NCBI GenBank assembly: GCA_902499925.1 | Contig: GCA_902499925.1_4130.1 | DNA length: 64,000 nt | Direction: 5' to 3' (one strand) | From: Escherichia coli | GTDB taxonomy: Bacteria; Pseudomonadota; Gammaproteobacteria; Enterobacterales; Enterobacteriaceae | Program-made: the position numbers and the translations under genes | Notes under the pieces: model-generated | Databases searched by the model: none | Seen by the model: only the letters and a program-made list of their open reading frames with translations | Told to the model about the DNA's origin: nothing | Part shown: positions 1 through 64,000 of the stretch, in pieces | Layout of the letters: each line of letters opens with the position of its first letter | Numbering within the stretch: position 1 is the stretch's first letter

Positions 1-337
1 GATATCACCCGAACCCAGTAACTTGTCACGGAATTGTTTAAACTCGATTTCTTCATCGGATAATGAAAAACCCAAATCCATAAAGCACATACCACCAGCA
101 CTGAAGCATGACCCAGATGATGTACCAATTAAAATATCATCCATCCCATATAAGCCGTAAAAAATATTGGAGTACCAAGTACTAAGTTTACTTCGGTGAT
201 GATATTTAAGAACATTCTTCTTGATATTTACATCTAATGAATTAGCTGTTGATATCACTTTTTTGGTTAAAATAATAGTTTTGTTCAAATTACTCAACCA
301 TACTTTAGTATCAGTTGGGCTAAGAGCAGTGTATTTC
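1..337 (-). CDS. hypothetical protein, N-terminal part only (gene runs off left edge)
   Basis: Open minus frame from ATG near 337 to window edge; contains GTSSG (GxSxG-like) motif; no family assignment. Confidence 0.4.
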
Positions 338-340
338 ATA

Positions 341-865
341 TTAATCCTCTAAATTCCATTCATCAACCATAGTTGAGCATAATTCCATGTGTCGGAAATA
401 TTTCTCATTAAGTGAATATGGACTCTTATAAAATTGTCGTACATCAGTGAATATATCATAGTTTCTATATATAAATGACATATTTTTATTCATGAATTCT
501 ATAATCTTCCATAACTTTTCTGTATCGTTTTGTATAGTTTCTGCACTCAATCCCGTCAATTTCATTAGACGCTTGATTTTAAAGCCAGACTCTATTGACG
601 TATTATTATGCTTGGTTAAGTAACTATAGCCAATGGAACTATATATTAGTTCAATACTATCAGTACTGGTTATTGTTCCTAGAAATGATTTTAAATTTCT
701 ATTCAACCAATACCATTTTTTGTTCTTGTTATAGCAAGAATACCACTTTTTAACTATAGCTATTGCCTCTGAATTTAAACTTTCGGCAAATTCATCAATT
801 AAAAACATGTGATTGAAAAATACATCACTTTGATCTTCAGATAATTTATATTGCTGCATATCCAC
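341..865 (-). CDS. hypothetical protein
   Basis: 174-aa ORF, tightly packed with neighbours on same strand. Confidence 0.55.
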   Translation of the reverse strand: MDMQQYKLSEDQSDVFFNHMFLIDEFAESLNSEAIAIVKKWYSCYNKNKKWYWLNRNLKSFLGTITSTDSIELIYSSIGYSYLTKHNNTSIESGFKIKRLMKLTGLSAETIQNDTEKLWKIIEFMNKNMSFIYRNYDIFTDVRQFYKSPYSLNEKYFRHMELCSTMVDEWNLED

Positions 866-978
866 CTACCCTATTAACAATTACACCTTGGGTATTTACC
901 TTGTATGGATCAATTTTTGATCAATATTTTTTGATATGCAGCAAATAAAATGGGAATCATGAAAGATTCCCTAAGTAA

Positions 979-1425
979 TTATTTCTGGAATGGAGTGTAC
1001 TGGTACTGCTCACAATCGGAAACAGTTAGTACACCTTCATCATAACCGTACTGGAGAATAAGATCAAATGCTTTATCAACCATAGCTACAACGTCTTTGT
1101 AACGAACAATAGTATGTGCCTGTTTCTCAACTGCTTTCATAATACCCATCAACATCCAGCGACCTTCATCAGTGTGAAGTTTAGCAAAACGAGGACGTTT
1201 AGTTGCTGCCATAATGTCAGTCCATTCTGCTTTAAACACTGATGGACGTTTAGGAATATCATACAGAGTTGTTGGGAATGTTACGTTGTTTTTCTTCATA
1301 GCTTCAGCTTGTGCAGCACGATAACCTTGACGGAATAGTGGGTGCTGTGATTTTAGCTGTTCATTGTTAAAAACTACTTTGTTTTTAAACGCGGCAGAAC
1401 CTTCTTTGTATTGTGCATTAGACAT
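979..1425 (-). CDS. hypothetical protein
   Basis: 148-aa ORF, start/stop checked against sequence (cat at 1423-1425, tta at 979-981). Confidence 0.55.
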   Translation of the reverse strand: MSNAQYKEGSAAFKNKVVFNNEQLKSQHPLFRQGYRAAQAEAMKKNNVTFPTTLYDIPKRPSVFKAEWTDIMAATKRPRFAKLHTDEGRWMLMGIMKAVEKQAHTIVRYKDVVAMVDKAFDLILQYGYDEGVLTVSDCEQYQYTPFQK

Positions 1426-1426
1426 A

Positions 1427-1756
1427 TTATTCTTTCCCCTCGTCAGTACTGATGAATTTTTTATCTGAGAATGTGCCGTGTTCTTGACGCATAGCTTCTG
1501 CGTGTTGAACTGCGTTAATTGGATTAATGTTCTTTTTAATAAGAACTTCTTGCATTAATTCGAGAACAATAGAAAAACCATTGAGTACTCGCTCTGCCTC
1601 GTCAACACCTTTCAATTCAATAGCCACTGCACTAATCTGATCTAATGCGGTATTAATAAACTCTGAATCATCTAACACATCATTGACTTCAGTATTATTA
1701 CGTACAAGAACTTTCATATAATCTCCAGAAATAAGATGCCCCAAATGAGGCATCAA
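1427..1756 (-). CDS. hypothetical protein
   Basis: 109-aa ORF immediately upstream of 979..1425. Confidence 0.5.
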   Translation of the reverse strand: MMPHLGHLISGDYMKVLVRNNTEVNDVLDDSEFINTALDQISAVAIELKGVDEAERVLNGFSIVLELMQEVLIKKNINPINAVQHAEAMRQEHGTFSDKKFISTDEGKE

Positions 1757-1768
1757 ATGAAATTCAAA

Positions 1769-2464
1769 TTAGACCCACTCTTCAACGCCACCGCGACGTT
1801 TGACGAGATACTTACCTTCTTCGTTGCGTGGTCCGAGGATGATACCATCAATGAAACCATGTTCACCGTATTCGAGTGCTTCTTCAGCGTTCAACCACAG
1901 GTCACGATCCGCATCTTTCAGTAGTTGTTCGTGTGATACACCAACTGCTTCAGCAATTTCTTTCGTCAATAGTGTGTTCAATGCATCAGAGTGTTTCAAA
2001 GAAATCTTCTGATCGGTAATCAGACCCTGAGTACCGGAACTTACTTGGTGGCACATGAAGTAAGAACGCTTACCACCTAGACGGAAACCTTTAGTACCAA
2101 CAACTGATTGAGTATAGCAACCCATTGATGCTGCATAACCCATTACTACTGTACGGATAGGAGATACACAAGACTTAGCAATGTCAGCGATACCCAAACC
2201 TGCGTGTACTGAACCACCAGGAGAACTAATGTAGAAGGTAATTGGTTCCGAACCCTGAGAATCCAACCACACCAATTGTTGCTTGATGATATGTGCCATT
2301 TGGTCATTGAAGTCAGTATCAAGGAAAATGATACGGTCTTGCATCATACGAGATGCTAGGTCATAAGTACGTTCTGCACCATTAACTTTTTCAACTACAT
2401 AAGGAATAGAAATGTTGCGAACTTCACCACCAGCATAACCACCAAAATTGAATTGTTCAACCAT
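1769..2464 (-). CDS. clpP: ClpP-like ATP-dependent protease proteolytic subunit (S14 peptidase)
   Basis: ISSPGGSV, catalytic Ser in GYAASMG, His in MCHQ, Asp in DADRD; overall colinear with bacterial ClpP. Confidence 0.85.
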   Translation of the reverse strand: MVEQFNFGGYAGGEVRNISIPYVVEKVNGAERTYDLASRMMQDRIIFLDTDFNDQMAHIIKQQLVWLDSQGSEPITFYISSPGGSVHAGLGIADIAKSCVSPIRTVVMGYAASMGCYTQSVVGTKGFRLGGKRSYFMCHQVSSGTQGLITDQKISLKHSDALNTLLTKEIAEAVGVSHEQLLKDADRDLWLNAEEALEYGEHGFIDGIILGPRNEEGKYLVKRRGGVEEWV

Positions 2465-2523
2465 TGTTATTTTCCTCTATTGTTTCATTGATGTGAGTAT
2501 TATATCACAGTGTTCGTATTTGT

Positions 2524-2907
2524 CTACAAGTTTCTTAAAAAATCTAGTAAACCGCAAATTGTATGTTTATTAAACATATCGTGGTCAATCTTTAACAACT
2601 TAACCATAGCATTATCATACACCGTAGAGTCGGTAATGTCAAACAAAGAATTTGTGTAATAACGTTCATTTTCTACATAAATGTATAAGTCATTTGATTT
2701 GTCAAGATCTTCATAGAAGTCAGCATCAAAGTACTCTGCAAATCCATCAATCCAAACCTCAACTGAATCATCATCTAAGCAGTAGTTTCTTGCTTCTTTT
2801 GAATATATTTCCAGCTTTCTGGCTGCACTGGAGTAATGTGTATACGCATTAATTACGTACTTTATTTCATCATTGTACTCAATTACATACACAACGATAT
2901 TTTCCAT
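2524..2907 (-). CDS. hypothetical protein
   Basis: 127-aa ORF. Confidence 0.5.
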   Translation of the reverse strand: MENIVVYVIEYNDEIKYVINAYTHYSSAARKLEIYSKEARNYCLDDDSVEVWIDGFAEYFDADFYEDLDKSNDLYIYVENERYYTNSLFDITDSTVYDNAMVKLLKIDHDMFNKHTICGLLDFLRNL

Positions 2908-3302
2908 CAGTACACCCCTATTGATGTAAGAGCGTATAGAAATTCATAGCGTGTACCAACTGGAATGTCATCAAAATCAATCTCAATCATTCTTAGTGAA
3001 TTTGAAAATTGTTCGTATCTAAAGAACATATTAATTGATAAAGTACTGAATGGCAACACATCACCACGACTATCATCATGAACAAGAACATACACCTTTC
3101 CCACAAATGAATCTAAATCGTCTGCTTGTTTTACATCACGGGTGAAGTGATATCTATCTTTCATCACAGTACCAGTACCATCTGGATTGTAGTATTGGGT
3201 TTTGTCACAAGAGGATAGCATACGCATACCCCATCGTTGATACATATGACAGCTACCCAATATAACAAGCATTTTGTCATCAATGTGAAATGTATGTATC
3301 AT
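2907..3302 (-). CDS. hypothetical protein
   Basis: 131-aa ORF, 1-nt overlap with downstream gene. Confidence 0.5.
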   Translation of the reverse strand: MIHTFHIDDKMLVILGSCHMYQRWGMRMLSSCDKTQYYNPDGTGTVMKDRYHFTRDVKQADDLDSFVGKVYVLVHDDSRGDVLPFSTLSINMFFRYEQFSNSLRMIEIDFDDIPVGTRYEFLYALTSIGVY

Positions 3303-3311
3303 AACCTCACC

Positions 3312-4103
3312 TTAGATTTCAAATACAAATTTAGGATCGTAATCGAAGTTCTCACATGCACCACTGTAAGATTCATAACCTCTTGGGTTACAAATGATAC
3401 GAGTTTTTCCAATGTTGTAGTCAAAACTACTATGAACATGACCATGAATCCAAACATCAGCACCCAAATCTTCGATGTACTGGTCCATATCAGAACAATA
3501 ACATCCATTCAGTGAGTCATTCTTGTATCTCGGAGATACACTCTGATAACTTGGTGCATGATGTGTTACCACCACAACCTTGATATCATTATCATTCATT
3601 AGACGAACTGTGTCAACTGAATTTTTGATAAATTGTTTATCCTGATAATGCATGAACTCAACATCATCAGGTTTGAGCTTACGTTTCCACGGTTCTGATG
3701 TTGTTCCATGACGAATGTGTTTATAATCATTCATCTTTTGTTGAGCATCAAACTTAACCAGTGCATTGCCTTTATCAAAGTCAGTCCACAGTGTACTGCC
3801 AACCAGCAGTACACCATCCAGCCATACAAATTTGTTTTGCAAAAAGATGAAATTTGGAATCTCATCTTGCATATCGGATAGTACTTTATTAGTCTTGTGA
3901 ATGTTTGAACCGTAGTACTCATGATTACCAGGAACCAGTACTACATTCTTGAACTGCTTGCACAGGGATTCGATACCAGTACGATAACGACTGCGTTTAG
4001 CTTCATCAAAGTCCCCTGCAATAATCAGCACTGTATCACTGTAATCACCACTATGGAGGTAATCAGTGCCACCGTGTACGTCTGACGTTACAACAAATTT
4101 CAT
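3312..4103 (-). CDS. calcineurin-like metallophosphoesterase
   Basis: Metallophosphoesterase signature blocks DVHG, GDFD, GNHE, HGHVH; AGGAGG RBS upstream of ATG. Confidence 0.75.
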   Translation of the reverse strand: MKFVVTSDVHGGTDYLHSGDYSDTVLIIAGDFDEAKRSRYRTGIESLCKQFKNVVLVPGNHEYYGSNIHKTNKVLSDMQDEIPNFIFLQNKFVWLDGVLLVGSTLWTDFDKGNALVKFDAQQKMNDYKHIRHGTTSEPWKRKLKPDDVEFMHYQDKQFIKNSVDTVRLMNDNDIKVVVVTHHAPSYQSVSPRYKNDSLNGCYCSDMDQYIEDLGADVWIHGHVHSSFDYNIGKTRIICNPRGYESYSGACENFDYDPKFVFEI

Positions 4104-4122
4104 AATTACCTCCTATAAATGA

Positions 4123-5541
4123 TTAACCGAGTGATTCAAGAATACTATTAGAGAACACCTCAACCGCACTATCACGAATTTCTAAGATACGAGTATAGTC
4201 GTCACAAGTGTTTTTGTCAAATCTAAATTCAATAAACACTGGTAAAAATAGTGATGGCTCGCCAGTACGCTTATCGAATACAATATCATTGCACTCTACT
4301 GTTACTACTTGACCGATGAGTTCTTGCATTCTTTCCCAAATGGTTTTAAACGTCCATTCTGCGTCTTTCTCTTTAATTCCAGTACCTACATTAACTTTTA
4401 ATGTACCACAAGCACTTTCCAGTTGTAAAGAACCAAGGCTACCTTTACGCTTACCTTCACCTTCATTGAAACCAACAATACGCAAGTCCAATTGCATCTT
4501 AAGTTTCATTTTCAATTGCTTAGGAGAAGTGTGAGATTTCCAGATACCATCTTCACATTTCAGTACTGAACCCTCTTCACCTTCGTTCATTAGTTCACTA
4601 TTGTACTCAAATGCTTCTTTGATGTTTAGAACTTTACGGAATCCAACCATACGAACAAAATCACTACCGAGTTCGTTAATTGCATCTACTAAGATCTCAC
4701 GGCGTTCTTTACGTTTTACATCCCATACACCTTCACAAAATGCATCATATGGAACAACATCCCATAGAACGAATACAGTACGCATTGCTTCATTCTGACT
4801 GATGCTATCTTTACCAGCTTTCTGGATAATACCGTTACCAGTAGTGCGTGGGAGAATGGTTTCTCCATCATTGTCCAGTACTACACCTTCACCCATAAAG
4901 ACTACACCACTACTAAAACGTTCATCTTTACTTTGGATGATGTGAGCAAGACCTGCCATTTCACCATCACGACAACCCAGGAAGTCGTATAGTTTACCAT
5001 TACGGGATGTAGAAGTTAATGAACCATTAATGACAACGTGGTTCAAGTACTGACCATCCATTTTCACTTCTGATATAGCATAACCATAATCTTTGAAGTT
5101 AATGTTCTTTGCAGTCTTTTTGTCAATCAAAGAACAACGCATGTATGGTTCGTCTTTGATGAAACCTTTCCCGAACACATCATTGCAGTTCTTTTCTTGG
5201 ATACCACAATCAAGGTTCTTCGTGAGCATTTTACGAAGAACTTCTTGGTCATCTTCTGATACAGAACCCAGTACTGAAGCAATGAAGTCACGTCCAGCAT
5301 TTCCGGTCACACCACGTTTGTAAATGCATTCTAGCTTATCAATAGCTTCATCTAATGTCATATGTTGGTATACATCATCAGCTTGTGGTAGCTTTTTATA
5401 CCCACTTACAATTGAAGGGTCTAGTGTATATTTCAGTACTTTTTGTAATGTTTGGTTATCTTTGTTTTGTTCAAGGATAGCTTTTTTACCCAGAGTACTG
5501 CTAGTATTTTTAATGCTTTCAAGAATTGCTAAAATGCTCAT
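4123..5541 (-). CDS. 30: ATP-dependent DNA ligase (T4 gp30-like)
   Basis: N-terminus MSILAILESIK...KKAILEQNKDNQTLQKVLKYTL closely parallels T4 DNA ligase N-terminus; KxDG adenylation motif EVKMDGQ. Confidence 0.9.
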   Translation of the reverse strand: MSILAILESIKNTSSTLGKKAILEQNKDNQTLQKVLKYTLDPSIVSGYKKLPQADDVYQHMTLDEAIDKLECIYKRGVTGNAGRDFIASVLGSVSEDDQEVLRKMLTKNLDCGIQEKNCNDVFGKGFIKDEPYMRCSLIDKKTAKNINFKDYGYAISEVKMDGQYLNHVVINGSLTSTSRNGKLYDFLGCRDGEMAGLAHIIQSKDERFSSGVVFMGEGVVLDNDGETILPRTTGNGIIQKAGKDSISQNEAMRTVFVLWDVVPYDAFCEGVWDVKRKERREILVDAINELGSDFVRMVGFRKVLNIKEAFEYNSELMNEGEEGSVLKCEDGIWKSHTSPKQLKMKLKMQLDLRIVGFNEGEGKRKGSLGSLQLESACGTLKVNVGTGIKEKDAEWTFKTIWERMQELIGQVVTVECNDIVFDKRTGEPSLFLPVFIEFRFDKNTCDDYTRILEIRDSAVEVFSNSILESLG

Positions 5542-5552
5542 TGTATATTCCC

Positions 5553-6755
5553 TTATAGATAATACTTTCCAATGTAAAGTTTATTACTTAGTGATAGCTG
5601 GACGTGACAAGGTTTTTCTTGGTAGTAACGAGTTGATGATGTTTTATTTTCTGTTGGTGGGAAGAAAGGAGAACGGTATCCGTTCCATGTACCAAATGAT
5701 ACATGCTCGTTTAAATCCACATCCATTGTCATAATACCATTAGCATCAATTTCAACTGGATATGCACTGTATCGTTCAAATACATCAGTGTATTGAAGAA
5801 TATAATCACCATTACGACCATAATAACTTCTGGTTGTATTGTTCTTTACACCAAAGAAAACACGATATGCCTGTTCATCAACTTTACACATGAACGGAAC
5901 GTTCTCGTTGAATCGTCCATTACTCATTATATCATCAGGATTGATTTCTTCGTACTTTACTTTCAAATCTTGTGCTTTAAACGACTTATCACTTATCAGT
6001 ACTGGTATATTGCTTTCACATAATGGGTTACTGCGATTTCGTTGGATATTTTGCCAAAATGCATTAGCTTTAACAATTTCATCTTGAACTGTTGTTTTCA
6101 CATTCAGTGCAGCACTTGGTTCTAATGCATAAGTTTCAAGACGAGCATTAAGAGCATATGTCCCACGAGTAGTATTATATACTAAGTGATACTTGGAACT
6201 CTTATCAGAAAATGAAAACTCTTTAGTTTTCTTGATACAAATAGCATTTACTTTACCACAATAATAGTAATCTTCTTTATTGTGTCTAAAACCATCACCT
6301 ACTTTCAATTTAGAAACAACTTCTTTTTGTTGTTCTTTCTTATTCTCCTTCTCAACCAATTTAGCAAAGGTTTTAGTTTTACCGTTAATTAGTTCTAAAC
6401 TATTATTAAAGAACATAGGTTCAACAAATACACCCTTAACAATATCATTGTTGATGATAAGGTCGTTCATGTTTTTAGCACTCACCAAGAACTCGAAACC
6501 TTCAGGGTGACGTATGGTGAAGTATGTTTCACGAGCATGAACAGTGAGCTTATGTACCACAGAAAATCCAATTGTAGGCACATTATCAATCCATAGTGAA
6601 GGTAGATTGTTTTTCTTAGCCCAGTACTCGGCCTTTTCTTTTTTAGTCTCAAACGCTTTTGTGTGTGATTTTGTAGCATCTATAATGTAACCAGTAACTT
6701 GGTTATGATTTACATATGAACGAGCCACAAATAACTTCTCTGGAAAATCCATCAA
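5553..6755 (-). CDS. hypothetical protein
   Basis: 400-aa ORF, no recognisable motif. Confidence 0.6.
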   Translation of the reverse strand: MMDFPEKLFVARSYVNHNQVTGYIIDATKSHTKAFETKKEKAEYWAKKNNLPSLWIDNVPTIGFSVVHKLTVHARETYFTIRHPEGFEFLVSAKNMNDLIINNDIVKGVFVEPMFFNNSLELINGKTKTFAKLVEKENKKEQQKEVVSKLKVGDGFRHNKEDYYYCGKVNAICIKKTKEFSFSDKSSKYHLVYNTTRGTYALNARLETYALEPSAALNVKTTVQDEIVKANAFWQNIQRNRSNPLCESNIPVLISDKSFKAQDLKVKYEEINPDDIMSNGRFNENVPFMCKVDEQAYRVFFGVKNNTTRSYYGRNGDYILQYTDVFERYSAYPVEIDANGIMTMDVDLNEHVSFGTWNGYRSPFFPPTENKTSSTRYYQEKPCHVQLSLSNKLYIGKYYL

Positions 6756-7171
6756 ACAGTCCTCATTGTACTAATTGCTTTTAATGTGTTAAACAATGAA
6801 CCATATTTTACTTGCATTAGTTGATCCCCAGCAGGAAGATTCATACGCATAACAGACATGTCTTCAACCATTTCAGATGTACACAGTACTGCTACACATG
6901 TAGTTGCATCATTTAATCCGGCTTCATTGAATTTAGCGAATGGCACTTTTCCCTGCTTACAAAGGTCATCATAATAAGAATTTAACTTATCATGACCACC
7001 AGCATTTAGTACTACAATAGTTTCGTGGTCATAATACCATTCATCAATAATAGTACTGAAAGCAGTACCTTCATATTCTTTAATTAGTTTTACGCCAGCA
7101 TGAAATGCTTGAATTCCAGCTTGTACACCTTGGCAGTACATGTTTGTTAAGCAATATAATTTCATTTCCAT
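6752..7171 (-). CDS. hypothetical protein
   Basis: 139-aa ORF, 4-nt overlap with upstream gene. Confidence 0.55.
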   Translation of the reverse strand: MEMKLYCLTNMYCQGVQAGIQAFHAGVKLIKEYEGTAFSTIIDEWYYDHETIVVLNAGGHDKLNSYYDDLCKQGKVPFAKFNEAGLNDATTCVAVLCTSEMVEDMSVMRMNLPAGDQLMQVKYGSLFNTLKAISTMRTV

Positions 7172-7389: not shown

Positions 7390-7399
7390 TTCTATTTCC

Positions 7400-52732: not shown

Positions 52733-52733
52733 A

Positions 52734-54003: not shown

Positions 54004-54031
54004 TTATATTGCATCTCCTTTAGGTATATTC

Positions 54032-54343: not shown

Positions 54344-54352
54344 ATTCTTCTC

Positions 54353-54921: not shown

Positions 54922-54990
54922 AATTTTTACCCTCTATTTGAACGCTCAAAAAGTACAGGTACTATAGCACTAAAGAAAAGTACTGTCAAG

Positions 54991-56986: not shown

Positions 56987-57192
56987 TGGATAAACCTTTT
57001 TAGTTCTTTGATGTAATCATTAATATTGCATTCTTGATAGTTAGTCCCTAGGGTAGCTTGAACATAGATTTCACTCATTAGAATATTTTTTTCTTCATCA
57101 GGTAAATCTGTGGTCTTTGCTATATACAATTTTAGAATTAAACTACTTAATAGTTCGTGGTATTCACTTGGTGAAAGGATTTTCATTTGCAT
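56950..57192 (-). CDS. paralog family B member
   Basis: LGTNYQECNINDYI; near-duplicate of 56744..56986 at DNA level. Confidence 0.6.
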   Translation of the reverse strand: MQMKILSPSEYHELLSSLILKLYIAKTTDLPDEEKNILMSEIYVQATLGTNYQECNINDYIKELKRFIQCKCESLPTKNT

Positions 57193-57398
57193 GTTCTCAG
57201 TACAGATTCTTTAAGTTCATCGATGTAGTCCTCAACGAATTGCTCTTGGAAGTTAGTTCCAATATATAAAAGAACTCTTAAATCTGCTCTAAGTAACTCT
57301 TTTTCATCATCATCTATATCAGACAATGTTATGTTTAAGAATTTACTTGTATTAAAGATTAACAATTCTGTTTGTTCACTGTGGCTTAAAATTTTCAT
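57183..57398 (-). CDS. paralog family B member
   Basis: IGTNFQEQFVEDYI. Confidence 0.55.
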   Translation of the reverse strand: MKILSHSEQTELLIFNTSKFLNITLSDIDDDEKELLRADLRVLLYIGTNFQEQFVEDYIDELKESVLRTCK

Positions 57399-57606
57399 AA
57401 TCTCTTTTTGCTTTCCTCGACAGTAGGTACAAATACGATTCTTCGTATTGTGCTTGGAAGTTTGTGTTTAAGAGTCGAAACAACTTCTGTTCTTCTAGAA
57501 CGAGTTGCTTATCTTCATAACAACGGTAGCGTATCAACTTTTTGTATTCGATGTTGATTACATCCATTACTATAAGCCCATGTTCATCATCTGTCAAGTG
57601 CTTCAT
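57376..57606 (-). CDS. paralog family B member
   Basis: LNTNFQAQYEESYL. Confidence 0.5.
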   Translation of the reverse strand: MKHLTDDEHGLIVMDVINIEYKKLIRYRCYEDKQLVLEEQKLFRLLNTNFQAQYEESYLYLLSRKAKRDYENFKPQ

Positions 57607-57845
57607 GCTTTTTTTCTTTTCCTGATGTGTTTAGTTAAAAGGTATATTAGTTTTCTGATGTATTCTTCCTGATAGTTTGTTCCTAATAGTGCAAGAAGTT
57701 TTGCTTCAACTAAAGCTAATTGACGTTCTTCAAATGTGTGTTCCAGTATGTACTTTGGGTTTGATTTTTTAGAAATTGCACTATTAGTTTTCATTACAAT
57801 CTTATGATATTCATTAACTGTTAGGATTTTTAAATTCTTGAGCAT
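57603..57845 (-). CDS. paralog family B member
   Basis: LGTNYQEEYIRKLI. Confidence 0.55.
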   Translation of the reverse strand: MLKNLKILTVNEYHKIVMKTNSAISKKSNPKYILEHTFEERQLALVEAKLLALLGTNYQEEYIRKLIYLLTKHIRKRKKA

Positions 57846-58071
57846 GTACCTTTTCCTTTATAGAGAATTTAAGATATCGAAGCATACTTTCAATGTAATA
57901 CTCTTGTCTGTCAGTTCCAAGAAAGTACAGGAGTTGAATGTATAAAACTTCTGCACTCCTTTCGGCATGTGACTTGTTTGTGTCGTTTGGAAGTTGATTT
58001 GTAAGTTTTCTGGATTTAATTAATCGTTCTTTTAACTCATCGTCTGTTAAGTATTTCATTTGCATTTGCAT
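57814..58071 (-). CDS. paralog family B member
   Basis: LGTDRQEYYIESML. Confidence 0.55.
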   Translation of the reverse strand: MQMQMKYLTDDELKERLIKSRKLTNQLPNDTNKSHAERSAEVLYIQLLYFLGTDRQEYYIESMLRYLKFSIKEKVHAQEFKNPNS

Positions 58072-58297
58072 TTACTTTTTCCTTAATAGTGATTTTAAGA
58101 TATCTAATCATACGTGCAACATATTCCTCTTGTCTATCAGTTCCCAGAAGATATGGTAGTGATTGGAATAATACTTCTGCACTCCTTTCTGCTGGGGTTT
58201 GGTTTAGGTCAATTGGACGTTTATTGGTATATCTCTTGGCACGAACTAATCTCTCGACGTATTCATTATAGGTTAAGTATATCATTTCATTTTGCAT
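58037..58297 (-). CDS. paralog family B member
   Basis: LGTDRQEEYVARMI; twin of 57814..58071. Confidence 0.55.
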   Translation of the reverse strand: MQNEMIYLTYNEYVERLVRAKRYTNKRPIDLNQTPAERSAEVLFQSLPYLLGTDRQEEYVARMIRYLKITIKEKVNANANEILNRR

Positions 58298-58533
58298 TTA
58301 ATGTTTCTTACGTAAATTGTCTGGATTAAACAATCAATCCAAGTTTGAATATATTGGTTTTGATACTGTGTGCCTAAGAGACTCTGCATTTTAAACTCTG
58401 CTTCAAGTTCATATCTCTTTTCTATAGAAAAGCTCAAATGACCATATTCTTTATCGTATCTTCTCAGTGCTTCCCCAATTCTATCAAATCTTTCTGCTAA
58501 TCTGATGTTATTCACAATATTCATCGCATTCAT
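58282..58533 (-). CDS. paralog family B member
   Basis: LGTQYQNQYIQTWI. Confidence 0.55.
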   Translation of the reverse strand: MNAMNIVNNIRLAERFDRIGEALRRYDKEYGHLSFSIEKRYELEAEFKMQSLLGTQYQNQYIQTWIDCLIQTIYVRNIKCKMK

Positions 58534-58808
58534 CGATCAGTACACCTCAGTGGTTGGGTCATTTGATGAAAGTACAGCTTACCTCTGATTTCCAGTAGTA
58601 ACTCCGCGATTAAGCGATTTACTTCTGTATCTTGATAGTTTGTTCCTAAGAATACACCCATCTTTAACTCACGCATCATAATCATTTTCTTACTGTGTTG
58701 AATTTCTGGGTTGTGATAGATTGTATTACGTTTGTGCGTAATTTTTGTCATACGCTCGGTATATTCATCTTTACTTAAATTAATCATTTTTATTCTCCAA
58801 AGCATCAC
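58530..58808 (-). CDS. paralog family B member
   Basis: LGTNYQDTEVNRLI. Confidence 0.55.
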   Translation of the reverse strand: MMLWRIKMINLSKDEYTERMTKITHKRNTIYHNPEIQHSKKMIMMRELKMGVFLGTNYQDTEVNRLIAELLLEIRGKLYFHQMTQPLRCTDR

Positions 58809-59019
58809 ATTTATTTTCGATACAAATCATTAGTTCTCTAAGATAGTTTTTTATCTTACCTTCCTGATGGTTCGTCCCCAGGAAGTTGCATAACTCTGCT
58901 TCTATTATTTTGATTCTTCTGGTGTCAGGTTTCAATTTTTTGTTATTGAAGATTTGAATCCTTATATCCCTTGATGCATTTAAACGTTTTTGATATTCAT
59001 GGAAAGATAAATTAATCAT
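58780..59019 (-). CDS. paralog family B member
   Basis: LGTNHQEGKIKNYL. Confidence 0.55.
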   Translation of the reverse strand: MINLSFHEYQKRLNASRDIRIQIFNNKKLKPDTRRIKIIEAELCNFLGTNHQEGKIKNYLRELMICIENKCDALENKND

Positions 59020-59234
59020 TTACTTTGTATCTCTCTCTTGAGGGCATCAATTAACAACAGTACAGCATTCTCTTGATAGTTTGTTCCTAAGACTGAAAGC
59101 ATCTTAATCTCATTTACTACAATCAACTTCTTTGAGCGTTCAATAATGTTACTATTATAAACGGCGTTACGTGCTGGATAAGTTTTTGCAAGACGAACAT
59201 AATATTCATCTTTACTTAAATTAATCATTTGCAT
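59016..59234 (-). CDS. paralog family B member
   Basis: LGTNYQENAVLLLI. Confidence 0.55.
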   Translation of the reverse strand: MQMINLSKDEYYVRLAKTYPARNAVYNSNIIERSKKLIVVNEIKMLSVLGTNYQENAVLLLIDALKREIQSK

Positions 59235-59443
59235 TTACTTTGGATCTCCTTGACTAATGCATCAACCCACATGTCTATATACATTTGTTGATAGTTTGTC
59301 CCTATGAGTGCCCCTGCATAGAGTTCAGCTACCATTGCATGTTTTAGGTTGGCAGGGATGCTCTTATCAGATTGAATCTTTACTCTTCTGTTGGCACATG
59401 TTTTCAGAAGCTTAACATATTCGTAACCTATTAATTTTCTCAT
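59225..59443 (-). CDS. paralog family B member
   Basis: IGTNYQQMYIDMWV. Confidence 0.55.
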   Translation of the reverse strand: MRKLIGYEYVKLLKTCANRRVKIQSDKSIPANLKHAMVAELYAGALIGTNYQQMYIDMWVDALVKEIQSKCK

Positions 59444-59655
59444 TCTTTTGATATCACCTTGTTACGTAAGGCACTTAACAATACGTCAGTGTAGATGTTT
59501 TGATAGTTTGTTCCTACGAATACACCCAACTTCATTTCAGCTATTATAACACATTTGTCCTCTTGTGCAATAGACTTGTCTAAAGAAATACTAACAACTT
59601 TCCTTCTTATAGCTTGTAACCTCCAATGATACTGATACTCATTTAGGGTTATCAT
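59440..59655 (-). CDS. paralog family B member
   Basis: VGTNYQNIYTDVLL. Confidence 0.55.
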   Translation of the reverse strand: MITLNEYQYHWRLQAIRRKVVSISLDKSIAQEDKCVIIAEMKLGVFVGTNYQNIYTDVLLSALRNKVISKE

Positions 59656-59890
59656 TCTCTCGCCTCCATTTCTCGGTTCTAATGTGTTGACATTGTGCTT
59701 CGATGAACATATCTATTGATTTGGCAATTGCTTTTTTATCTGTGCCTGTCATCAGTACAAGCATCTCGGCCTCACAGTGAAGTAAACGCATGATATCATA
59801 GGGTAATATTCCAGATACCGTGTCATAGTGTTTCTGTGCCAGTGTCTGTAATAGTTTACAATACATTTTGTGATTTAGTCTGTGTCGCAT
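59639..59890 (-). CDS. paralog family B-like (divergent)
   Basis: TGTDKKAIAKSIDMFI. Confidence 0.45.
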   Translation of the reverse strand: MRHRLNHKMYCKLLQTLAQKHYDTVSGILPYDIMRLLHCEAEMLVLMTGTDKKAIAKSIDMFIEAQCQHIRTEKWRRENDNPK

Positions 59891-60147
59891 TGTTTATTCC
59901 ATTCTTTTTTGGCCTTGATGGTTTTATATTGGATTTGGTTTCTTAATGCTGATAAGTATCGTTGAATGAACAGATCTTGATAGTTTGTTCCAATGAATTT
60001 CATCAGATAAAGTTCACCGTTGATAACATCCACTTCAGGTGCACCATATAAGGCATTGTTTTTTCTAAGGGTATGGATTAAAGAGAATAGGGCAGTTTGA
60101 TACTCAACTCCTGATAAAGTCTTCATGTTTTGTGAGCCAATAATCAT
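59875..60147 (-). CDS. paralog family B member
   Basis: IGTNYQDLFIQRYL. Confidence 0.55.
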   Translation of the reverse strand: MIIGSQNMKTLSGVEYQTALFSLIHTLRKNNALYGAPEVDVINGELYLMKFIGTNYQDLFIQRYLSALRNQIQYKTIKAKKEWNKQCDTD

Positions 60148-60361
60148 CTAGTTTATCCTGTATAACATTCATTAATTGTTCGACATATTCTGTGCAAAAC
60201 TTATCTTGATATTGAGTCCCCATAAAGTACAACAACCATAGCTCATTAACTTTAGCTCGCATTTGGTTCCATGTAAGGCTGGGGTCATCGTAGACTATCC
60301 TTGCTATAGGGGTTAGTTTACGGACTATAGTTTCATATTCATCTAGTGTTAAGTGTTTCAT
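60104..60361 (-). CDS. paralog family B member
   Basis: MGTQYQDKFCTEYV. Confidence 0.55.
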   Translation of the reverse strand: MKHLTLDEYETIVRKLTPIARIVYDDPSLTWNQMRAKVNELWLLYFMGTQYQDKFCTEYVEQLMNVIQDKLDDYWLTKHEDFIRS

Positions 60362-60576
60362 TTACATTTGTCCCTTATTAGATCAGTGAGGGCAACTATG
60401 TGTGCAACAACATACTCTTCCTGAAAGTTCGTCCCCAGTACAGCCATCATGCGTATATCGGTGGTGTTTATCCTGTGTTCCCTTACACATAAACCTTCTG
60501 TGTGAGGAAGTGTAAAATATTTGTTTATTGCAGCAACGATAATTTTATTCTTCTCGGAGTTACTTAAATGTTTCAT
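60358..60576 (-). CDS. paralog family B member
   Basis: LGTNFQEEYVVAHI. Confidence 0.55.
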   Translation of the reverse strand: MKHLSNSEKNKIIVAAINKYFTLPHTEGLCVREHRINTTDIRMMAVLGTNFQEEYVVAHIVALTDLIRDKCK

Positions 60577-60785
60577 AGTTTGCTCTTAATGTATTTCTGG
60601 AGTGCAATTATATACTCATTCAAGAAATGCTCCTGATAGTCTGTGCCGAGGAATGCACCCAATAGTATATCATTTTCCAATACTAATGCTAAGTTTAAAT
60701 CATCAGTCTCTTCATATACTATGAGAATTTCAAGTTGTCTGGCAGCGACGCGTTCGGTATATAGATTTGAGTTAATGCTATTCAT
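60573..60785 (-). CDS. paralog family B member
   Basis: LGTDYQEHFLNEYIIALQKYIKSKL. Confidence 0.55.
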   Translation of the reverse strand: MNSINSNLYTERVAARQLEILIVYEETDDLNLALVLENDILLGAFLGTDYQEHFLNEYIIALQKYIKSKL

Positions 60786-60994
60786 AGTTTACTCTTAATG
60801 TAATTCTGGAGTGCAATTAAGTATTCCCCTACATAATACACCTGAAAGTCTGTATCCAAAAATGCACCCATAAGTAAATCTTTTTCTAATACCCTTGATA
60901 AGTTAAGGTCTGCATTTGAAAGGTATATAAGTAAGATTTCACCCTGTGCGGAATTGAAACGTTTCTTATATTCTTCTGGTGTTAAAAAAATCAT
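60782..60994 (-). CDS. paralog family B member
   Basis: LDTDFQVYYVGEYLIALQNYIKSKL; twin of 60573..60785. Confidence 0.55.
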   Translation of the reverse strand: MIFLTPEEYKKRFNSAQGEILLIYLSNADLNLSRVLEKDLLMGAFLDTDFQVYYVGEYLIALQNYIKSKL

Positions 60995-61200
60995 AGTTTC
61001 CTCTTAATATCTTCTATTAAAAATCGAATCCAATCGTCAACATACTCTTCCTGATGGTTTGTGTTCAGTACAGCCAACATGCGGATCTCTGCTCTTGCAA
61101 CTTCAATTGCAGTTTTAGGAAGGTCTTTTCTGATATCCAACATTAAGTCCATGTATCTCAAGATAAGACCGTATGATTGGGTTCGTGTTATAGTTTTCAT
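60991..61200 (-). CDS. paralog family B member
   Basis: LNTNHQEEYVDDWI. Confidence 0.5.
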   Translation of the reverse strand: MKTITRTQSYGLILRYMDLMLDIRKDLPKTAIEVARAEIRMLAVLNTNHQEEYVDDWIRFLIEDIKRKL

Positions 61201-61397
61201 TGTTTCCTCGTGGATAATATTTCATTTTTCAATGCATCCATATATTGAATCACCCATCTTCCCTGATAGCTTGTTCCCAATGTAATCAAAAGGTATAACT
61301 CAATTCGTTCTAAGTTTGTGTCTGTGTTATAAATCTTTACCATGTTTTTACGTAACAGTTCTTGATAATCTTCTTTATTTAAAATACGCATTTTCAT
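61197..61397 (-). CDS. paralog family B member
   Basis: LGTSYQGRWVIQYM. Confidence 0.5.
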   Translation of the reverse strand: MKMRILNKEDYQELLRKNMVKIYNTDTNLERIELYLLITLGTSYQGRWVIQYMDALKNEILSTRKQ

Positions 61398-61591
61398 AGT
61401 CTACCTTTTATGTCCCTTCGTAATTCTTGTAAGTATAGTTCGATATACTTTTCTTGATAGTTAGTTCCTATGAAAAGTTTCATAACCAATTCACGCTTAT
61501 ATGCAATACCACGGATATGTGACATATGTAGGATATATGCCATGTTGGATATGAGTGTGTGGTTGTGCTCTTCTTGAGTTAAAATACGCAT
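61394..61591 (-). CDS. paralog family B member (first gene of the tandem array in transcription order)
   Basis: IGTNYQEKYIELYL; track ORF 61394..61621 trimmed to internal Met (MRILTQ) preceded by GGAG. Confidence 0.55.
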   Translation of the reverse strand: MRILTQEEHNHTLISNMAYILHMSHIRGIAYKRELVMKLFIGTNYQEKYIELYLQELRRDIKGRL

Positions 61592-61619
61592 AGGGACTCC
61601 ATTAAAAATAATATCAATC

Positions 61620-61650
61620 ATATAATATACAATTCATATAAAAAGTCAAT
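61620..61650 (-). promoter_or_regulatory. sigma70-like promoter candidate upstream of family B array
   Basis: Minus-sense TTGACT-~16nt-TATTAT/ATATTA with TG upstream; approximate. Confidence 0.4.
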
Positions 61651-61840
61651 AACATTTTATTAGTAATACCCCTTTATCGAAGTCGCTAAGGTTACCCGCC
61701 CTTTAGCCCCCTACGCATTTTGCCATAGTCCAATCCCTTTTTATTCATAAAAGTCAAGGGATTACCTATGCATTTTTTTAACGCTGAAATTTAAAAATGC
61801 CTTGACTTTTTTATGATTCAGTACTAAATCCTTTTACGCA

Positions 61841-62050
61841 TTAATCCTTCGTTACGCTTACGATTATCTGTGTATCCCCATAGTCCTGCCATACTTCCAC
61901 GCCAGCCGCCGCCCTGGTTAGTCGTGCTGTCATCTGCTTAATGGTCTTAGGCTTTAGTGGAACCTGTTGCAGTACTGTACGCATAGCACTATCGACGTTA
62001 TCATGTACGCCTGCAATAGTGCCTAGAACGTTGTATACTGTATAGATCAT
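61841..62050 (-). CDS. hypothetical protein
   Basis: 69-aa ORF in GC-richer early-type block. Confidence 0.45.
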   Translation of the reverse strand: MIYTVYNVLGTIAGVHDNVDSAMRTVLQQVPLKPKTIKQMTARLTRAAAGVEVWQDYGDTQIIVSVTKD

Positions 62051-62118
62051 GTGTATGTACTCCTGATATAGTTAAGGCCGCTAGAGAGCGGCCTATGATG
62101 TTTGATGATGTGTAACGC

Positions 62119-62520
62119 TTACAACCCTAAGATAGTACGTGCTTCGTTGCGTTCCGTCCACAACTGCATGATGTGAGCAAGTAAGTCCTTGCTAATGTAT
62201 CCGGTGTTCATAGCTTCACGGATAGATACATCATAAGCACCGAAGCCAGTGCGAACGATACGCACATCATTCAGGTTAGTGTTATAGATACCGCCGAGAT
62301 CAACGGCTTCGAATACTGCATCAACAGAATATTCATTGTTGCCATCGTTGAAGTTTTCCAGTGCAATAGTATTGGATACCGCCCAACGTTTGCAGTTTCC
62401 AATGATGCGGCACTGTTCCGGTTGGATAGTGCCATTACTTACAGCGTACTCCAGTGCATCTTTACCAAAAGTCCGAGCCAGTACTAAAACGTCAGCGAAG
62501 GAAGTGATTGAGAAGGTCAT
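62119..62520 (-). CDS. hypothetical protein
   Basis: Track ORF 62119..62583 trimmed to Met (MTFSIT) that has AAGGAG RBS 8 nt upstream; the upstream codons overlap promoter/leader. Confidence 0.55.
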   Translation of the reverse strand: MTFSITSFADVLVLARTFGKDALEYAVSNGTIQPEQCRIIGNCKRWAVSNTIALENFNDGNNEYSVDAVFEAVDLGGIYNTNLNDVRIVRTGFGAYDVSIREAMNTGYISKDLLAHIMQLWTERNEARTILGL

Positions 62521-62537
62521 GATAAAACTCCTTAATT

Positions 62538-62602
62538 TAGGAGGGAGAACCATTTCCCCCTCTCTATGTAAAACATTATACATGAATCTAAGTACTATGC
62601 AA
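62538..62602 (-). promoter_or_regulatory. sigma70-like promoter plus conserved leader hairpin (copy 1)
   Basis: Minus-sense TTGCAT-16nt-TGTATAAT then leader GAGGGGGA-aauggu-UCUCCCUC hairpin before RBS. Confidence 0.6.
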
Positions 62603-62609
62603 GTACTTT

Positions 62610-62942
62610 TTACATTTTGATACCTGGATTCAGGTAGCGGTGAGATCCATATTCTGGATCGGTTTCGGCCCAGTACTGTAAATCTATAGTACCTTTAGCG
62701 TTAATCTTGTCTACCAGCTTATTCATCTTAGCGTATACTACATCAGCATCGATGCGTTTAAAGCCAGTGGCTTTAGTGAAGTAGTAGTGATTTGCTTCAC
62801 TATCATTAAGGATGTACCGAGCACCGTTTGCCGTTTGTGCAATAATGATTGAGTATTCTACGTTACGGTCGAGGCCGTCAATGAATACAGAGGAAACATT
62901 AGTACGGATGAAAGCTTTAACGATAGCGATTGAAGTAGTCAT
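62610..62942 (-). CDS. hypothetical protein
   Basis: 110-aa ORF; AGGAG RBS. Confidence 0.5.
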   Translation of the reverse strand: MTTSIAIVKAFIRTNVSSVFIDGLDRNVEYSIIIAQTANGARYILNDSEANHYYFTKATGFKRIDADVVYAKMNKLVDKINAKGTIDLQYWAETDPEYGSHRYLNPGIKM

Positions 62943-62996
62943 TTTGAATCTCCTAACTTTGTGGGCCGTCGCACCGTTGCCGCCCTACGAGATACA

Positions 62997-63025
62997 TTAT
63001 CGCAGTACTGATATACTTTGTCAAT
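62997..63025 (-). promoter_or_regulatory. sigma70-like promoter candidate
   Basis: Minus-sense TTGACA-17nt-GATAAT upstream of 62610..62942. Confidence 0.5.
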
Positions 63026-63147
63026 ACTTTTTTATTAATAGTTTCCACTCCACCAGCAGATAGTTACTCACCGTTATTAACTATATATTTTGGGTACACC
63101 TATGCACCCTGTGGGCTAGTTTTTGTCTATGCGTATATAATAGCAAA

Positions 63148-63177
63148 GGGACTGACCGGAGTCAATCCCTTTTTTTA
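63148..63177. terminator. terminator-like hairpin (strand ambiguous)
   Basis: GGGACUGAC-cgga-GUCAAUCCC; T7 run follows on plus strand, weaker U-tract on minus strand downstream of 63188..63388. Confidence 0.45.
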
Positions 63178-63187
63178 TTCTTTTTTG

Positions 63188-63388
63188 TTAGATGATTCTC
63201 CAATCATCAACGATCATGGTAAGATACCGAACCAGTGATCCGAGTGATTCGTGTTCTCGATAGTCTGCCGCTCCACCAGCGGTACAAGTACAGCCGATTA
63301 AGCCGTTTTGTAGTTCCTGGATCTTTACGTCGATCTGGTTGGCTTTAGCTTCTTTCAGTACTTCAACCAGGGCGATAGCGATAGACAT
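63188..63388 (-). CDS. hypothetical small protein
   Basis: 66-aa ORF with GGAG RBS, immediately downstream of consensus promoter. Confidence 0.5.
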   Translation of the reverse strand: MSIAIALVEVLKEAKANQIDVKIQELQNGLIGCTCTAGGAADYREHESLGSLVRYLTMIVDDWRII

Positions 63389-63410
63389 AATGTTTTACTC
63401 CAAACTATTG

Positions 63411-63471
63411 GCGGGAGAACTATTCCCCCGCTCTATGTAAAACATTATACATTACTGGTTAGTACTGTCAA
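63411..63471 (-). promoter_or_regulatory. sigma70-like promoter plus conserved leader hairpin (copy 2)
   Basis: Minus-sense TTGACA-16nt-TGTATAAT (perfect consensus) then leader GCGGGGGA-auagu-UCUCCCGC hairpin. Confidence 0.65.
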
Positions 63472-63478
63472 ATAGTTT

Positions 63479-63736
63479 TTATGAAATATCTTCGATGTAG
63501 TCGGCCCATTTCATTTTTTCAGTACTGTCAATGGCGACCGGATTATTTGGATCAAACCATTCACCATCACCGCAATACATACCCACGGCTACGGTTTTAT
63601 AGCCATCCTGGGCCGCACTCCACGACATTGCACGATAGATATGGCCTTTAACTGGTTGCAGTACTGGTAACGTTTTATGGTCTTCTACGTAGGCCATAGC
63701 TTGAGGATTTACCCGATATTGTGTGAACTGATCCAT
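63479..63736 (-). CDS. hypothetical protein
   Basis: 85-aa ORF. Confidence 0.5.
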   Translation of the reverse strand: MDQFTQYRVNPQAMAYVEDHKTLPVLQPVKGHIYRAMSWSAAQDGYKTVAVGMYCGDGEWFDPNNPVAIDSTEKMKWADYIEDIS

Positions 63737-63818
63737 TATGTTTCCCCTTGTAGTTAGTAAAGTTATTACATCAGTACTATCAAGCTATGTCAATAGTACT
63801 GAAATAAAACTTTTAGAT

Positions 63819-64000
63819 TAGATTATTGAGGCCGTCAATGGTAGACTCACTTTCTTCTTTCTCCCATTGTCGGTAGTACTTCCATGCTTCATGATAGGTG
63901 GCGATTAGTTCATCTTTTTGATCCTGGTTACATGCCAGTACTGAATCACGGTGAGCGGTGTTATAGATAGAATCGAATGATTTCTTCTCTTCTGCCAGGT
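63819..64000 (-). CDS. hypothetical protein, C-terminal part only (gene starts beyond right edge)
   Basis: Open minus frame entering from right edge and ending ...IDGLNNLI near 63819. Confidence 0.4.

Follow-up and report, generated by a model that had tools for sequence, protein, structure and literature searches.

An over-represented AGTACT palindrome in the early region of an Escherichia jumbo phage, possibly a lineage-wide word read as double-stranded DNA

The palindromic hexamer AGTACT and its GTAC core occur in the window (the whole 64,000-nucleotide stretch of contig GCA_902499925.1_4130.1 that was analysed) far more often than composition or codon usage accounts for, in every reading frame and in non-coding DNA alike. 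The closest relatives of the window are the Escherichia jumbo phages WPEC3, fEgEco12 and CMSTMSU, at about 98% identity. We favour, tentatively, the reading that (C)AGTACT(G) is a positively selected word of double-stranded DNA, a lineage-wide identity tag of the enterobacterial RaK2-like jumbo phages, which would be read by a phage-encoded, dyad-symmetric (dimeric) factor; this is possible rather than probable, and the rival explanations are weighed below. A literature search found no mention of an AGTACT motif in these phages.

1 to 64,000, no strand assigned: field of (C)AGTACT(G) and GTAC sites, with 198 AGTACT, 39 CAGTACTG and 585 GTAC, Poisson-spaced in coding and non-coding DNA

AGTACT is the most numerous hexamer of the window, its 198 copies (3.1 per kb) comparing with 21 expected from base composition and with 16.7 ± 3.7 (maximum 27) in 100 shuffles that preserve dinucleotides. 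Under such shuffles the extended form CAGTACTG, present 39 times, is expected 0.85 ± 0.96 times, and GTAC (585 against 195 expected) has the highest observed/expected ratio of all tetramers. The excess persists when coding constraints are held fixed: the 149 open reading frames (ORFs) contain 171 copies, against 48.7 expected after shuffling of synonymous codons (z 19) and 23.3 after shuffling of codon order (z 30), and it is still 3.5-fold in the shuffle that retains every protein and the codon usage of each gene. The original prediction that AGTACT is over-represented is thus borne out, and its frequency lies well outside the range expected from base and codon composition. Of the null models, only the maximal-order Markov model gave a low score (z 1.5); this is no refutation, because that model conditions on the motif itself, the excess being nested and graded through the sub-words GTA, TAC, GTAC and AGTAC. 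The earlier estimates of about one-third GC and of a chance expectation well under one site per kb agree with the computed values (33.6% GC; 21 or 16.7 sites per 64 kb), and the local counts made by eye also hold, with 4 sites in 15-16 kb, 6 in 30-31 kb, 11 in 62.6-64.0 kb (7.9 per kb) and 4 in 0-2 kb. The claim that the motif extends across the whole window is correct for most of it, but fails in two gaps, at 46,721-54,477 and 56,526-61,819, in which there is no AGTACT at all.

The anatomy of the sites is that of a DNA word. GTAC falls 169, 178 and 188 times in frames 0, 1 and 2 of the 149 ORFs, its density is 9.1 per kb in coding and 9.4 per kb in intergenic DNA, and about 90% of AGTACT sites are intragenic, without promoter context. 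Together with the excess that survives synonymous shuffling, these figures confirm that the motif uses more than one frame and argue, as had been proposed, for selection at the level of DNA and against a by-product of one protein motif. Site spacing is Poisson-like (coefficient of variation 1.04), counts per gene are not over-dispersed, and outside promoters the sites have no preferred position within genes, no preferred pair spacing and no periodicity. The preceding base is C at 44% of AGTACT sites and G at 9%, the following base G at 47% and C at 8%; beyond this one base on each side the logo carries no information, and it is dyad-symmetric, with left and right flanks nearly independent. Genome-wide, the flank variants number 221 for CAGTACTG, 73 for AAGTACTT, 46 for TAGTACTA and 6 for GAGTACTC. 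On the coding strand AGTAC and GTACT are close to equal in plus-strand early, minus-strand late and plus-strand late genes (467/438, 144/187 and 150/152), and outside 20-60 kb there is no consistent bias of site orientation to the coding strand or to the absolute strand. Nor is there the polarity of Chi or of FtsK-orienting polar sequences (KOPS), the non-palindromic half-sites being balanced everywhere except in 20-60 kb and 150-160 kb. A reader of double-stranded DNA is favoured over an RNA signal because the flanks are dyad-symmetric, strand bias is inconsistent and the promoter copies described below are untranscribed. That the sites are Poisson-spaced and uniformly spread speaks against a role in packaging or in classical cis-regulation. 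The broad list of roles in the original prediction is narrowed to this extent.

The window shares about 86% identity with PBECO4, 121Q and SP27 (Asteriusvirus; RaK2-like jumbo myoviruses), and 149 of its 152 called ORFs are on the minus strand. For context we put together the complete fEgEco12 sequence, which is 374,733 bp long and whose direct terminal repeat, an exact one, measures 20,993 bp; the window maps to this sequence in reverse, from about 84 kb down to 19.5 kb. To the left of about 61,689 it consists of the early-gene region adjoining the terminal repeat, and the remainder, made up of small early genes each with its own promoter, belongs to the repeat itself.

61,689 to 64,000, minus strand: terminal-repeat part, homologous to the fEgEco12 direct terminal repeat (boundary about 61,689), AGTACT 6.5 per kb

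The enrichment extends over the genome. In fEgEco12 there are 2,880 GTAC (observed/expected 2.3), 1,115 AGTACT (8.8) and 261 CAGTACTG (about 60), the last being the commonest octamer, while the commonest 12-mer is TTCAGTACTGAA; over the 354-kb genome this is about one AGTACT every 320 bp and one GTAC every 120 bp. The density of AGTACT peaks at 7 to 9 per kb in the terminal repeat and immediately ahead of the right-hand copy of that repeat, and falls in the late genes to about 2 per kb, which is still a 6-fold enrichment; the observed/expected ratio of the word stays between 6 and 9 whether gene blocks are early or late, plus-strand or minus-strand. GTAC is enriched in every 5-kb bin of the 354 kb except the tandem gene array described below, and one further bin, inside the ACT-free zone, has dense GTAC and no AGTACT. 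The trait is shared by relatives: AGTACT was counted 228 times against 16.6 expected in 50 kb of Turkey5, a diverged E. coli phage, 153 times against 8.2 in 25 kb of the Cronobacter phage GAP32, 119 times against 16.9 in the Klebsiella phage RaK2 and 90 times against 5.8 in XbC2, reported on Xanthomonas. Samples of the distant relative PA5oct (0 against 6.7 expected) and of T4 (7 against 6.7) show no enrichment. The motif is therefore genome-wide and lineage-shared, as the follow-up proposed with the original prediction was designed to determine, and it is kept between lineages with only 40 to 67% protein identity. When the window is compared with PBECO4 (85.5% identity), AGTACT ranks 9 of 154 in conservation, with 70% of its copies unchanged as opposed to 48% for hexamers overall, so that these sites are protected yet subject to turnover, changing at about half the average rate.

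A minority of the sites hold fixed positions in early promoters of the sigma-70 type, which confirms the earlier remark that the motif also lies in intergenic promoters. The layout is AGTAC-TTGACA (or TTGCxx), 11 to 12 nucleotides, then (C)AGTACT-G-TATAAT, with paired boxes 20 bp apart, one fused to the -35 element and the other directly 5′ of the -10 element. Counted from the -10 hexamer, the first bases of the boxes are at -27 and -7 in fEgEco12, Turkey5, RaK2 and GAP32, and the layout in XbC2 is alike. All are upstream of the transcription start, hence untranscribed, and so these copies act as DNA. Within the terminal repeat, non-coding DNA carries 11.6 AGTACT per kb, mostly 30 to 90 nucleotides ahead of start codons, and coding DNA 4.2 per kb. 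The fixed promoter position applies to roughly 60 to 80 sites, and AGTACT itself is no part of the sigma-70 consensus. Three examples from the window are as follows.

62,575 to 62,612, minus strand: early sigma-70-type promoter, aaaaAGTACTTGCAT-AGTACT-tagattcaTG-TATAAT, with two AGTACT boxes, the first sharing its last T with the -35 element
63,444 to 63,475, minus strand: early promoter, TTGACAGTACT-aaccagtaaTG-TATAAT, with an AGTACT box overlapping the end of the -35 element
54,953 to 54,989, minus strand: strong promoter-like site, TTGACA, 17-nucleotide spacer, TATAGT (11 of 12 matches), the -35 element being followed immediately by GTACT

The third lies about 480 nucleotides upstream of the start of the ACT-free run. 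Paired boxes over the contacts of RNA polymerase resemble the operator of a dimeric or tetrameric repressor; equally, they could be methylation-sensitive promoter elements. Some early promoters of RaK2 (7,997; 10,192) and XbC2 (2,619-7,614) have AGTAC-TTGCTTTA at the -35 position instead of TTGACA, and TTGCTTTA contains the consensus of the T4 MotA box, TGCTTtA. The -10 module of the early promoters, AGTACTGTATAAT, also occurs once on the plus strand (45,440-45,452), antisense to the genes, where it may be an antisense promoter. No link was found between AGTACT and TGAAACG, the reported -35 element of middle promoters.

The abundance of AGTACT stands beside a severe loss of other palindromes. 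GCGC is absent both from the window (50 expected) and from the 354-kb genome (354 expected), and 25 of the 64 six-base palindromes are missing from that genome, including GGTACC and CGTACG, which both contain the enriched GTAC core. GCGC is also missing from the sampled sequences of RaK2, GAP32, XbC2 and Turkey5 and present in those of PA5oct and T4; its loss could reflect avoidance of restriction or self-immunity to a host-cutting phage nuclease. A 50-kb sample of E. coli K-12 has 0.06 AGTACT per kb (observed/expected 0.26) and 6.8 GCGC per kb, where the phage has about 3 and 0, so that in these two words phage and sampled host DNA are almost orthogonal. This fits, without proving it, recognition of self by word content in phages that seemingly depend on avoiding sites and not on modifying bases.

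The reading that we favour would combine these observations as follows. A phage protein, inferred from the pattern of sites, would bind the AGTACT boxes; at promoters the bound protein would occupy the site of RNA polymerase, so that early transcription would be switched off or timed, and the roughly 50-fold higher density of sites on phage than on sampled host DNA would concentrate the factor on phage DNA. Recognition would be by sequence, the bases of these phages being apparently unmodified. Equally well, a phage N6-adenine methyltransferase could be the reader, leaving a methyl mark rather than a bound protein. Selection for the core persists where the full word is forbidden, since inside the ACT-free zone GTAC is kept at 10.6 per kb, as AGTACA. 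Several points weigh against this reading. The few candidate regulators that were scanned against Pfam gave nothing relevant as a reader protein, and about 1,000 sites are far above the need of any promoter regulator. The promoter boxes could derive in part from the common descent of duplicated promoter cassettes, the conservation of 70% against 48% of sites would also be expected if AGTACT were a mutational sink, the host comparison is a single 50-kb sample, and the tandem array at 56.5-61.8 kb does without the motif and without obvious harm. If the reading is true, sequence-coded marking of a viral chromosome would take its place beside base modification (T4, SPO1) and the protein nucleus (phiKZ-like phages), and it is of interest because these 350-kb phages have neither. 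For practical purposes CAGTACTG is a concrete bait for a DNA-binding or DNA-modifying protein, the AGTACT boxes identify a defined early-promoter module, and AGTACT enrichment is a simple bioinformatic signature by which this phage lineage could be recognised in metagenomes.

Three known systems offer comparisons. HIP1 (GCGATCGC) is a highly iterated palindrome of cyanobacterial genomes whose function is unsettled, with methyltransferases suspected. Like HIP1, the phage word is a short palindrome, some 8 bp long, that recurs roughly every 0.3 to 1 kb. It far exceeds what composition, dinucleotides or codons predict (CAGTACTG about 58-fold genome-wide), is dispersed over all frames and non-coding DNA, and is shared across a lineage (Asteriusvirus, Turkey5, RaK2, GAP32 and XbC2) while absent as an enriched word from the outgroups PA5oct and T4. 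Unlike HIP1, which is cellular and G+C-rich with a GATC core, it occurs in a phage and beside extreme purging of other palindromes, and we know of no fixed promoter place for HIP1. The uptake sequences of competent bacteria (DNA uptake sequence and uptake signal sequence, DUS/USS) and Chi are over-represented 'self' words with dedicated readers (ComP, RecBCD); they share with AGTACT a dense, roughly uniform distribution, frequent in self and rare in foreign DNA, and with it the logic of an identity tag, but they are asymmetric, and Chi is orientation-dependent, whereas AGTACT is palindromic and without polarity. A Chi-like role for GCTGGTGG was also rejected: it occurs 24 and 12 times on the two strands, within Gly-rich coding repeats, and has no link to the motif. 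The closest functional analogue known to us is TF1 of SPO1, an abundant phage DNA-binding protein that prefers phage DNA through its hydroxymethyluracil and blocks early promoters. Selective occupation of phage DNA with shut-off of early promoters is what we propose here, with the differences that discrimination would be by sequence and that no HU-like gene was identified.

Among the alternatives, an epigenetic mark deserves the most attention, although we consider it unlikely. Here the word would be the target of an orphan methyltransferase of the phage, either N6-adenine, encoded in the window, or C5-cytosine, encoded elsewhere in the genome; the injected DNA would be fully methylated and become hemi- or unmethylated after replication, and the methylation state would time early promoters or mark DNA for replication, repair or packaging. 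Methylation of GATC by Dam does such timing and marking in E. coli, IS10 and P1 pac.

22,000 to 22,524, minus strand: phage N6-adenine DNA methyltransferase (Pfam PF05869, Dam family, E 3.7e-32), candidate reader or marker

Both enzymes have their genes, the C5 methyltransferase being a short one, and homologues of the adenine enzyme are found in GAP32 (annotated, in the same neighbourhood), in CBB and in an Erwinia relative. AGTACT is palindromic with adenines on both strands, the overlap of its boxes with the -35 and -10 elements recalls promoters under methylation control, and the word is tolerated, as if protected, while nearly all other palindromes that contain G or C have been purged. 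Methylation would account for this tolerance, but not for an enrichment of 8- to 60-fold. GATC is depleted, not enriched, in the phage, a literature search gave no methylome data, and assignment of the specificity by homology is ruled out because the family is too broad (1,210 phage records) for specificity to be read from sequence.

A neutral or semi-neutral origin, in which biased mutation, repair or gene conversion generates the word and nothing reads it, is in our view distinctly unlikely. Origins of this kind have been proposed for the HIP1 palindrome of cyanobacteria and for the Vsr-driven excess of CCWGG in E. coli. The uniform, Poisson-like spread over all sequence classes and the graded, nested excess through GTA, TAC, GTAC and AGTAC would suit such a process, as would the absence of the word from the youngest-looking DNA, the tandem array, as if it accumulated slowly. 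However, a biased process should leave a depleted one-step neighbour, and none is evident (observed/expected 1.04 for GTAT/ATAC, 0.98 for GTAA/TTAC and 1.16 for AATACT/AGTATT). A signature of very-short-patch repair of the Vsr type was likewise not found: the neighbours of GTAC and AGTACT have ratios of 0.9 to 2.2, except for the non-transition neighbours GGAC/GTCC (0.66) and AGGACT (0.42). Promoter boxes at fixed positions across genera, the strong flank preference (221 CAGTACTG against 6 GAGTACTC), the complete absence of GGTACC and CGTACG despite the GTAC excess, and the persistence of the trait across lineages with 40 to 67% protein identity all argue in the same direction.

The first of the two AGTACT gaps has a character of its own, for within it the trinucleotide ACT is entirely missing from one strand.

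46,824 to 54,477, minus strand: ACT-free zone, 0 ACT on the coding strand (that is, 0 AGT on the plus strand) over about 20 genes and their spacers, 7.7 kb

The zone's own composition predicts 115 ACT and the rate elsewhere about 150; no other trinucleotide gap anywhere in the genome is nearly so extreme. The ban covers all three frames (0 observed against 52, 41 and 41 expected in frames 0, 1 and 2) and reaches across codon junctions: T never follows a NAC codon (125 cases), nor does A ever precede a CTN codon (58 cases), and the threonine codon ACT falls from 39% next door to 0%. It is confined to the sense strand, as AGT on the coding strand is normal (210 against 181 expected); ACG is normal and ACA is 1.9-fold enriched. 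After GTAC the zone has A 70 times, G 7, C 4 and T never, AGTACA replacing AGTACT; the zone thus bans ACT yet keeps GTAC, which shows that the half-word and the palindrome are under separate selective forces. Counterparts occur in fEgEco12 (29,019-37,312; 8,293 bp), Turkey3 (8,790 bp), PBECO4 (7,620 bp) and Turkey5 (26,032-30,434; 4,402 bp). For Turkey5 a single zone protein was compared (window 51,324-51,890), and its identity is just 26%. GAP32 and RaK2 lack a zone in the syntenic early region. A sequencing artefact is ruled out, because five genomes that were sequenced independently have the zone, their identity being 80 to 98%, or in Turkey5 only 26% at the protein level. Divergence and mosaicism are concentrated here: the zone has about 93% identity to the nearest relatives, against 98% for its surroundings. 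By position, identity is about 92-95% at 46,000-55,500 and about 98% at 30,000-38,000, and one zone protein is only 65 to 67% identical to that of fEgEco12. The genes of the zone gave no Pfam match at the curated cut-off and only families of unknown function in PHROGs, and many of their products belong to a large paralogous family.

A complete, one-strand, frame-independent ban on a trinucleotide looks like immunity to a nuclease specific for ACU or ACT, for which the engineered ACA-less mRNAs used with MazF provide the precedent (PMC5408214). The zone resembles these mRNAs, which escape MazF, in that one trinucleotide is wholly missing in all frames through the choice of synonymous and neighbouring codons (PMC5408214; PMC12151602), and differs from them in being a row of about 20 natural genes, in the identity of the trinucleotide (ACU) and in its 1.9-fold enrichment of ACA. 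Known cutters read ACA (MazF), ACD (ChpB), GCU (MqsR) and UUACU (Kid), and no ACU-only nuclease is found among the enzymes of known specificity in the cited literature (PMC5408214; PMC12151602). Avoidance of MazF or ChpB is ruled out as the cause, with ACA enriched and ACG normal. A strand-specific DNA nickase is an alternative. The genome of T7 carries its EcoP15I sites in a single orientation and so escapes type III restriction, the sites of which have 5 to 6 bp; the zone is similar in that a short asymmetric word occurs on one strand only, which removes the inverted pairs needed for cutting, and dissimilar in that the word has 3 nucleotides and the bias, which in T7 extends over the entire genome, is confined to 7.7 kb. 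If nuclease immunity is the explanation, the zone would predict a new trinucleotide-specific nuclease and would single out the genes that the phage most needs to express, which would be candidates for counter-defence.

A candidate for such a nuclease lies outside the window in the terminal repeat of fEgEco12 (15,303-15,557), where a toxin of the RelE/ParE fold (84 amino acids; PF24732, E 6e-11) is directly followed by an overlapping small gene. Its homologue in a Klebsiella phage is annotated as a YafQ-like ribonuclease toxin, and the gene is found in or near the annotated terminal repeats of RaK2-like phages of Escherichia, Klebsiella, Salmonella, Erwinia, Serratia, Yersinia, Cronobacter and Xanthomonas, with 92 to 100% identity among the phages of E. 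coli and Salmonella. Its case as the cause of the zone is weakened by this distribution, as the toxin is clade-wide but GAP32 and RaK2 lack the zone. The record of phage Sharanji (OR545507.1) starts near window position 46,380, within about 450 bp of the downstream edge of the zone, a start that is probably arbitrary or assembly-related. That the boundary of the zone is a physical end of the genome is unsupported, the terminal repeat of fEgEco12 ending at about window position 61,689.

The palindromes and the zone can be joined in one scheme, in which self and host would be told apart purely by word content in these phages with unmodified DNA. GCGC, common in the host and missing from the phage, would serve a phage nuclease as its 'kill' word. 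The 'self' word would be (C)AGTACT(G), scarce in the host and saturating in the phage, and its dedicated phage protein would organise, protect and temporally regulate the chromosome. In the E. coli/Salmonella branch the ACU/ACT-free block of about 20 genes would act as a natural single-protein-production cassette, still expressed while an ACU-specific nuclease, with a specificity so far undescribed, destroys the other messages. We regard the scheme as speculative and unlikely.

The zone also bears on the suggestion that AGTACT is itself an RNA-level signal, with AGUACU or GUACU a site for a ribonuclease or RNA-binding protein that tunes mRNA lifetime, as T4 RegB cuts GGAG. The zone does show strand-specific selection on ACU/ACT in this phage, all these phages carry the gene for the RelE/ParE-fold toxin in the terminal repeat, genes for the RNA-repair enzymes polynucleotide kinase and RNA ligase lie within the window, and the density of sites peaks in the earliest genes. 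The logo, however, is dyad-symmetric and the two half-sites are nearly equal on the coding strand (467/438, 144/187, 150/152), promoter boxes are untranscribed, and intergenic density equals that of coding DNA. Moreover the enrichment is phylogenetically much wider than the zone, GAP32 and RaK2 having the motif without it, and we regard an RNA signal as quite improbable. By position in the annotation of PBECO4, the ORFs at 11,813-12,745, 13,568-14,710 and 4,123-5,541 (all minus strand) correspond to genes for polynucleotide kinase/phosphatase, RNA ligase and DNA ligase. The kinase/phosphatase and the RNA ligase make up a T4-type RNA-repair pair of the kind that counters anticodon nucleases, which would be relevant if an RNA nuclease is active during infection.

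A further possibility is that the word recruits or titrates a host DNA-binding protein such as the nucleoid-occlusion factor SlmA, a dimeric helix-turn-helix protein whose palindromic site GTGAGTACTCAC has a centre identical to AGTACT (PMC3020112). The known hosts are mostly enterobacteria, which would suit this. The SlmA half-site needs G1, T2, a purine at position 3, A4 and G5 (PMC3020112), and the outer positions of the phage sites differ from these, position 3 being C at 44% of sites and G at only 9%. There is no match to GTGAGTACTCAC or to the relaxed form GTRAGYRCTYAC in the 354 kb and GAGTACTC occurs only 6 times, so SlmA sites are rejected; the trait is also retained in XbC2, reported on Xanthomonas, and a host factor of this kind is very unlikely.

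We also considered that AGTACT is a start site for a primase of the T4 type. If the enzyme read the template ACT, AGTACT would prime both strands with the full pentamer pppGUACU, and within the ACT-free zone one strand would go without lagging-strand primers. Strand-specific trinucleotides that have a pyrimidine in the middle are classically read by primases (T7, GTC; T4, GTT/GCT; DnaG, CTG), the phage genes for a primase subunit and a helicase are adjacent, and this one idea would unite the palindrome with the ACT ban. An extra primer would be harmless, though, so that an absolute ban (0 against about 115 to 150) is unexpected, the promoter boxes are left unexplained, and RaK2 and GAP32 carry the motif without the zone. 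We know of no primase that needs or selects such a density of sites, and give the idea very little credence.

That the excess is a by-product of protein motifs, paralogous families or codon usage is scarcely credible and can be taken as refuted. It is true that EExYFQ(Y)S(T)V, a motif which can be spelled TTCCAGTACAGTACTGT, recurs in 24 or more paralogues of the window, and that AGT, ACT and GTA are favoured codons of the phage, but the FQ(Y)S(T) family motif supplies only 16 of the 585 GTAC, and the equal frames, the two codon shuffles (z 19 and z 30) and the same density in non-coding DNA exclude the remainder.

The second AGTACT gap coincides with an array of small genes that abuts the terminal-repeat boundary (about 61,689).

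55,536 to 61,621, minus strand: closely spaced tandem array of small paralogous genes (products of 66 to 91 amino acids), a 27-member blastp family with one member outside at 40,828-41,019
56,526 to 61,819, minus strand: AGTACT-free stretch, with 14 GTAC in 5.3 kb, about the chance level

A second set of neighbouring genes, at least 24 between 29,579 and 55,880 on the minus strand, encodes proteins that share the acidic motif S-E-E-x-(Y/F)-F-Q-x-S-(T/L)-(V/I), examples being those at 54,991-55,344, 37,918-38,397 and 43,340-43,828 (minus strand). These proteins gave no Pfam match at the curated cut-off and only families of unknown function in PHROGs. Their motif resembles the ENLYFQ/S cleavage site of proteases of the tobacco etch virus (TEV) type.

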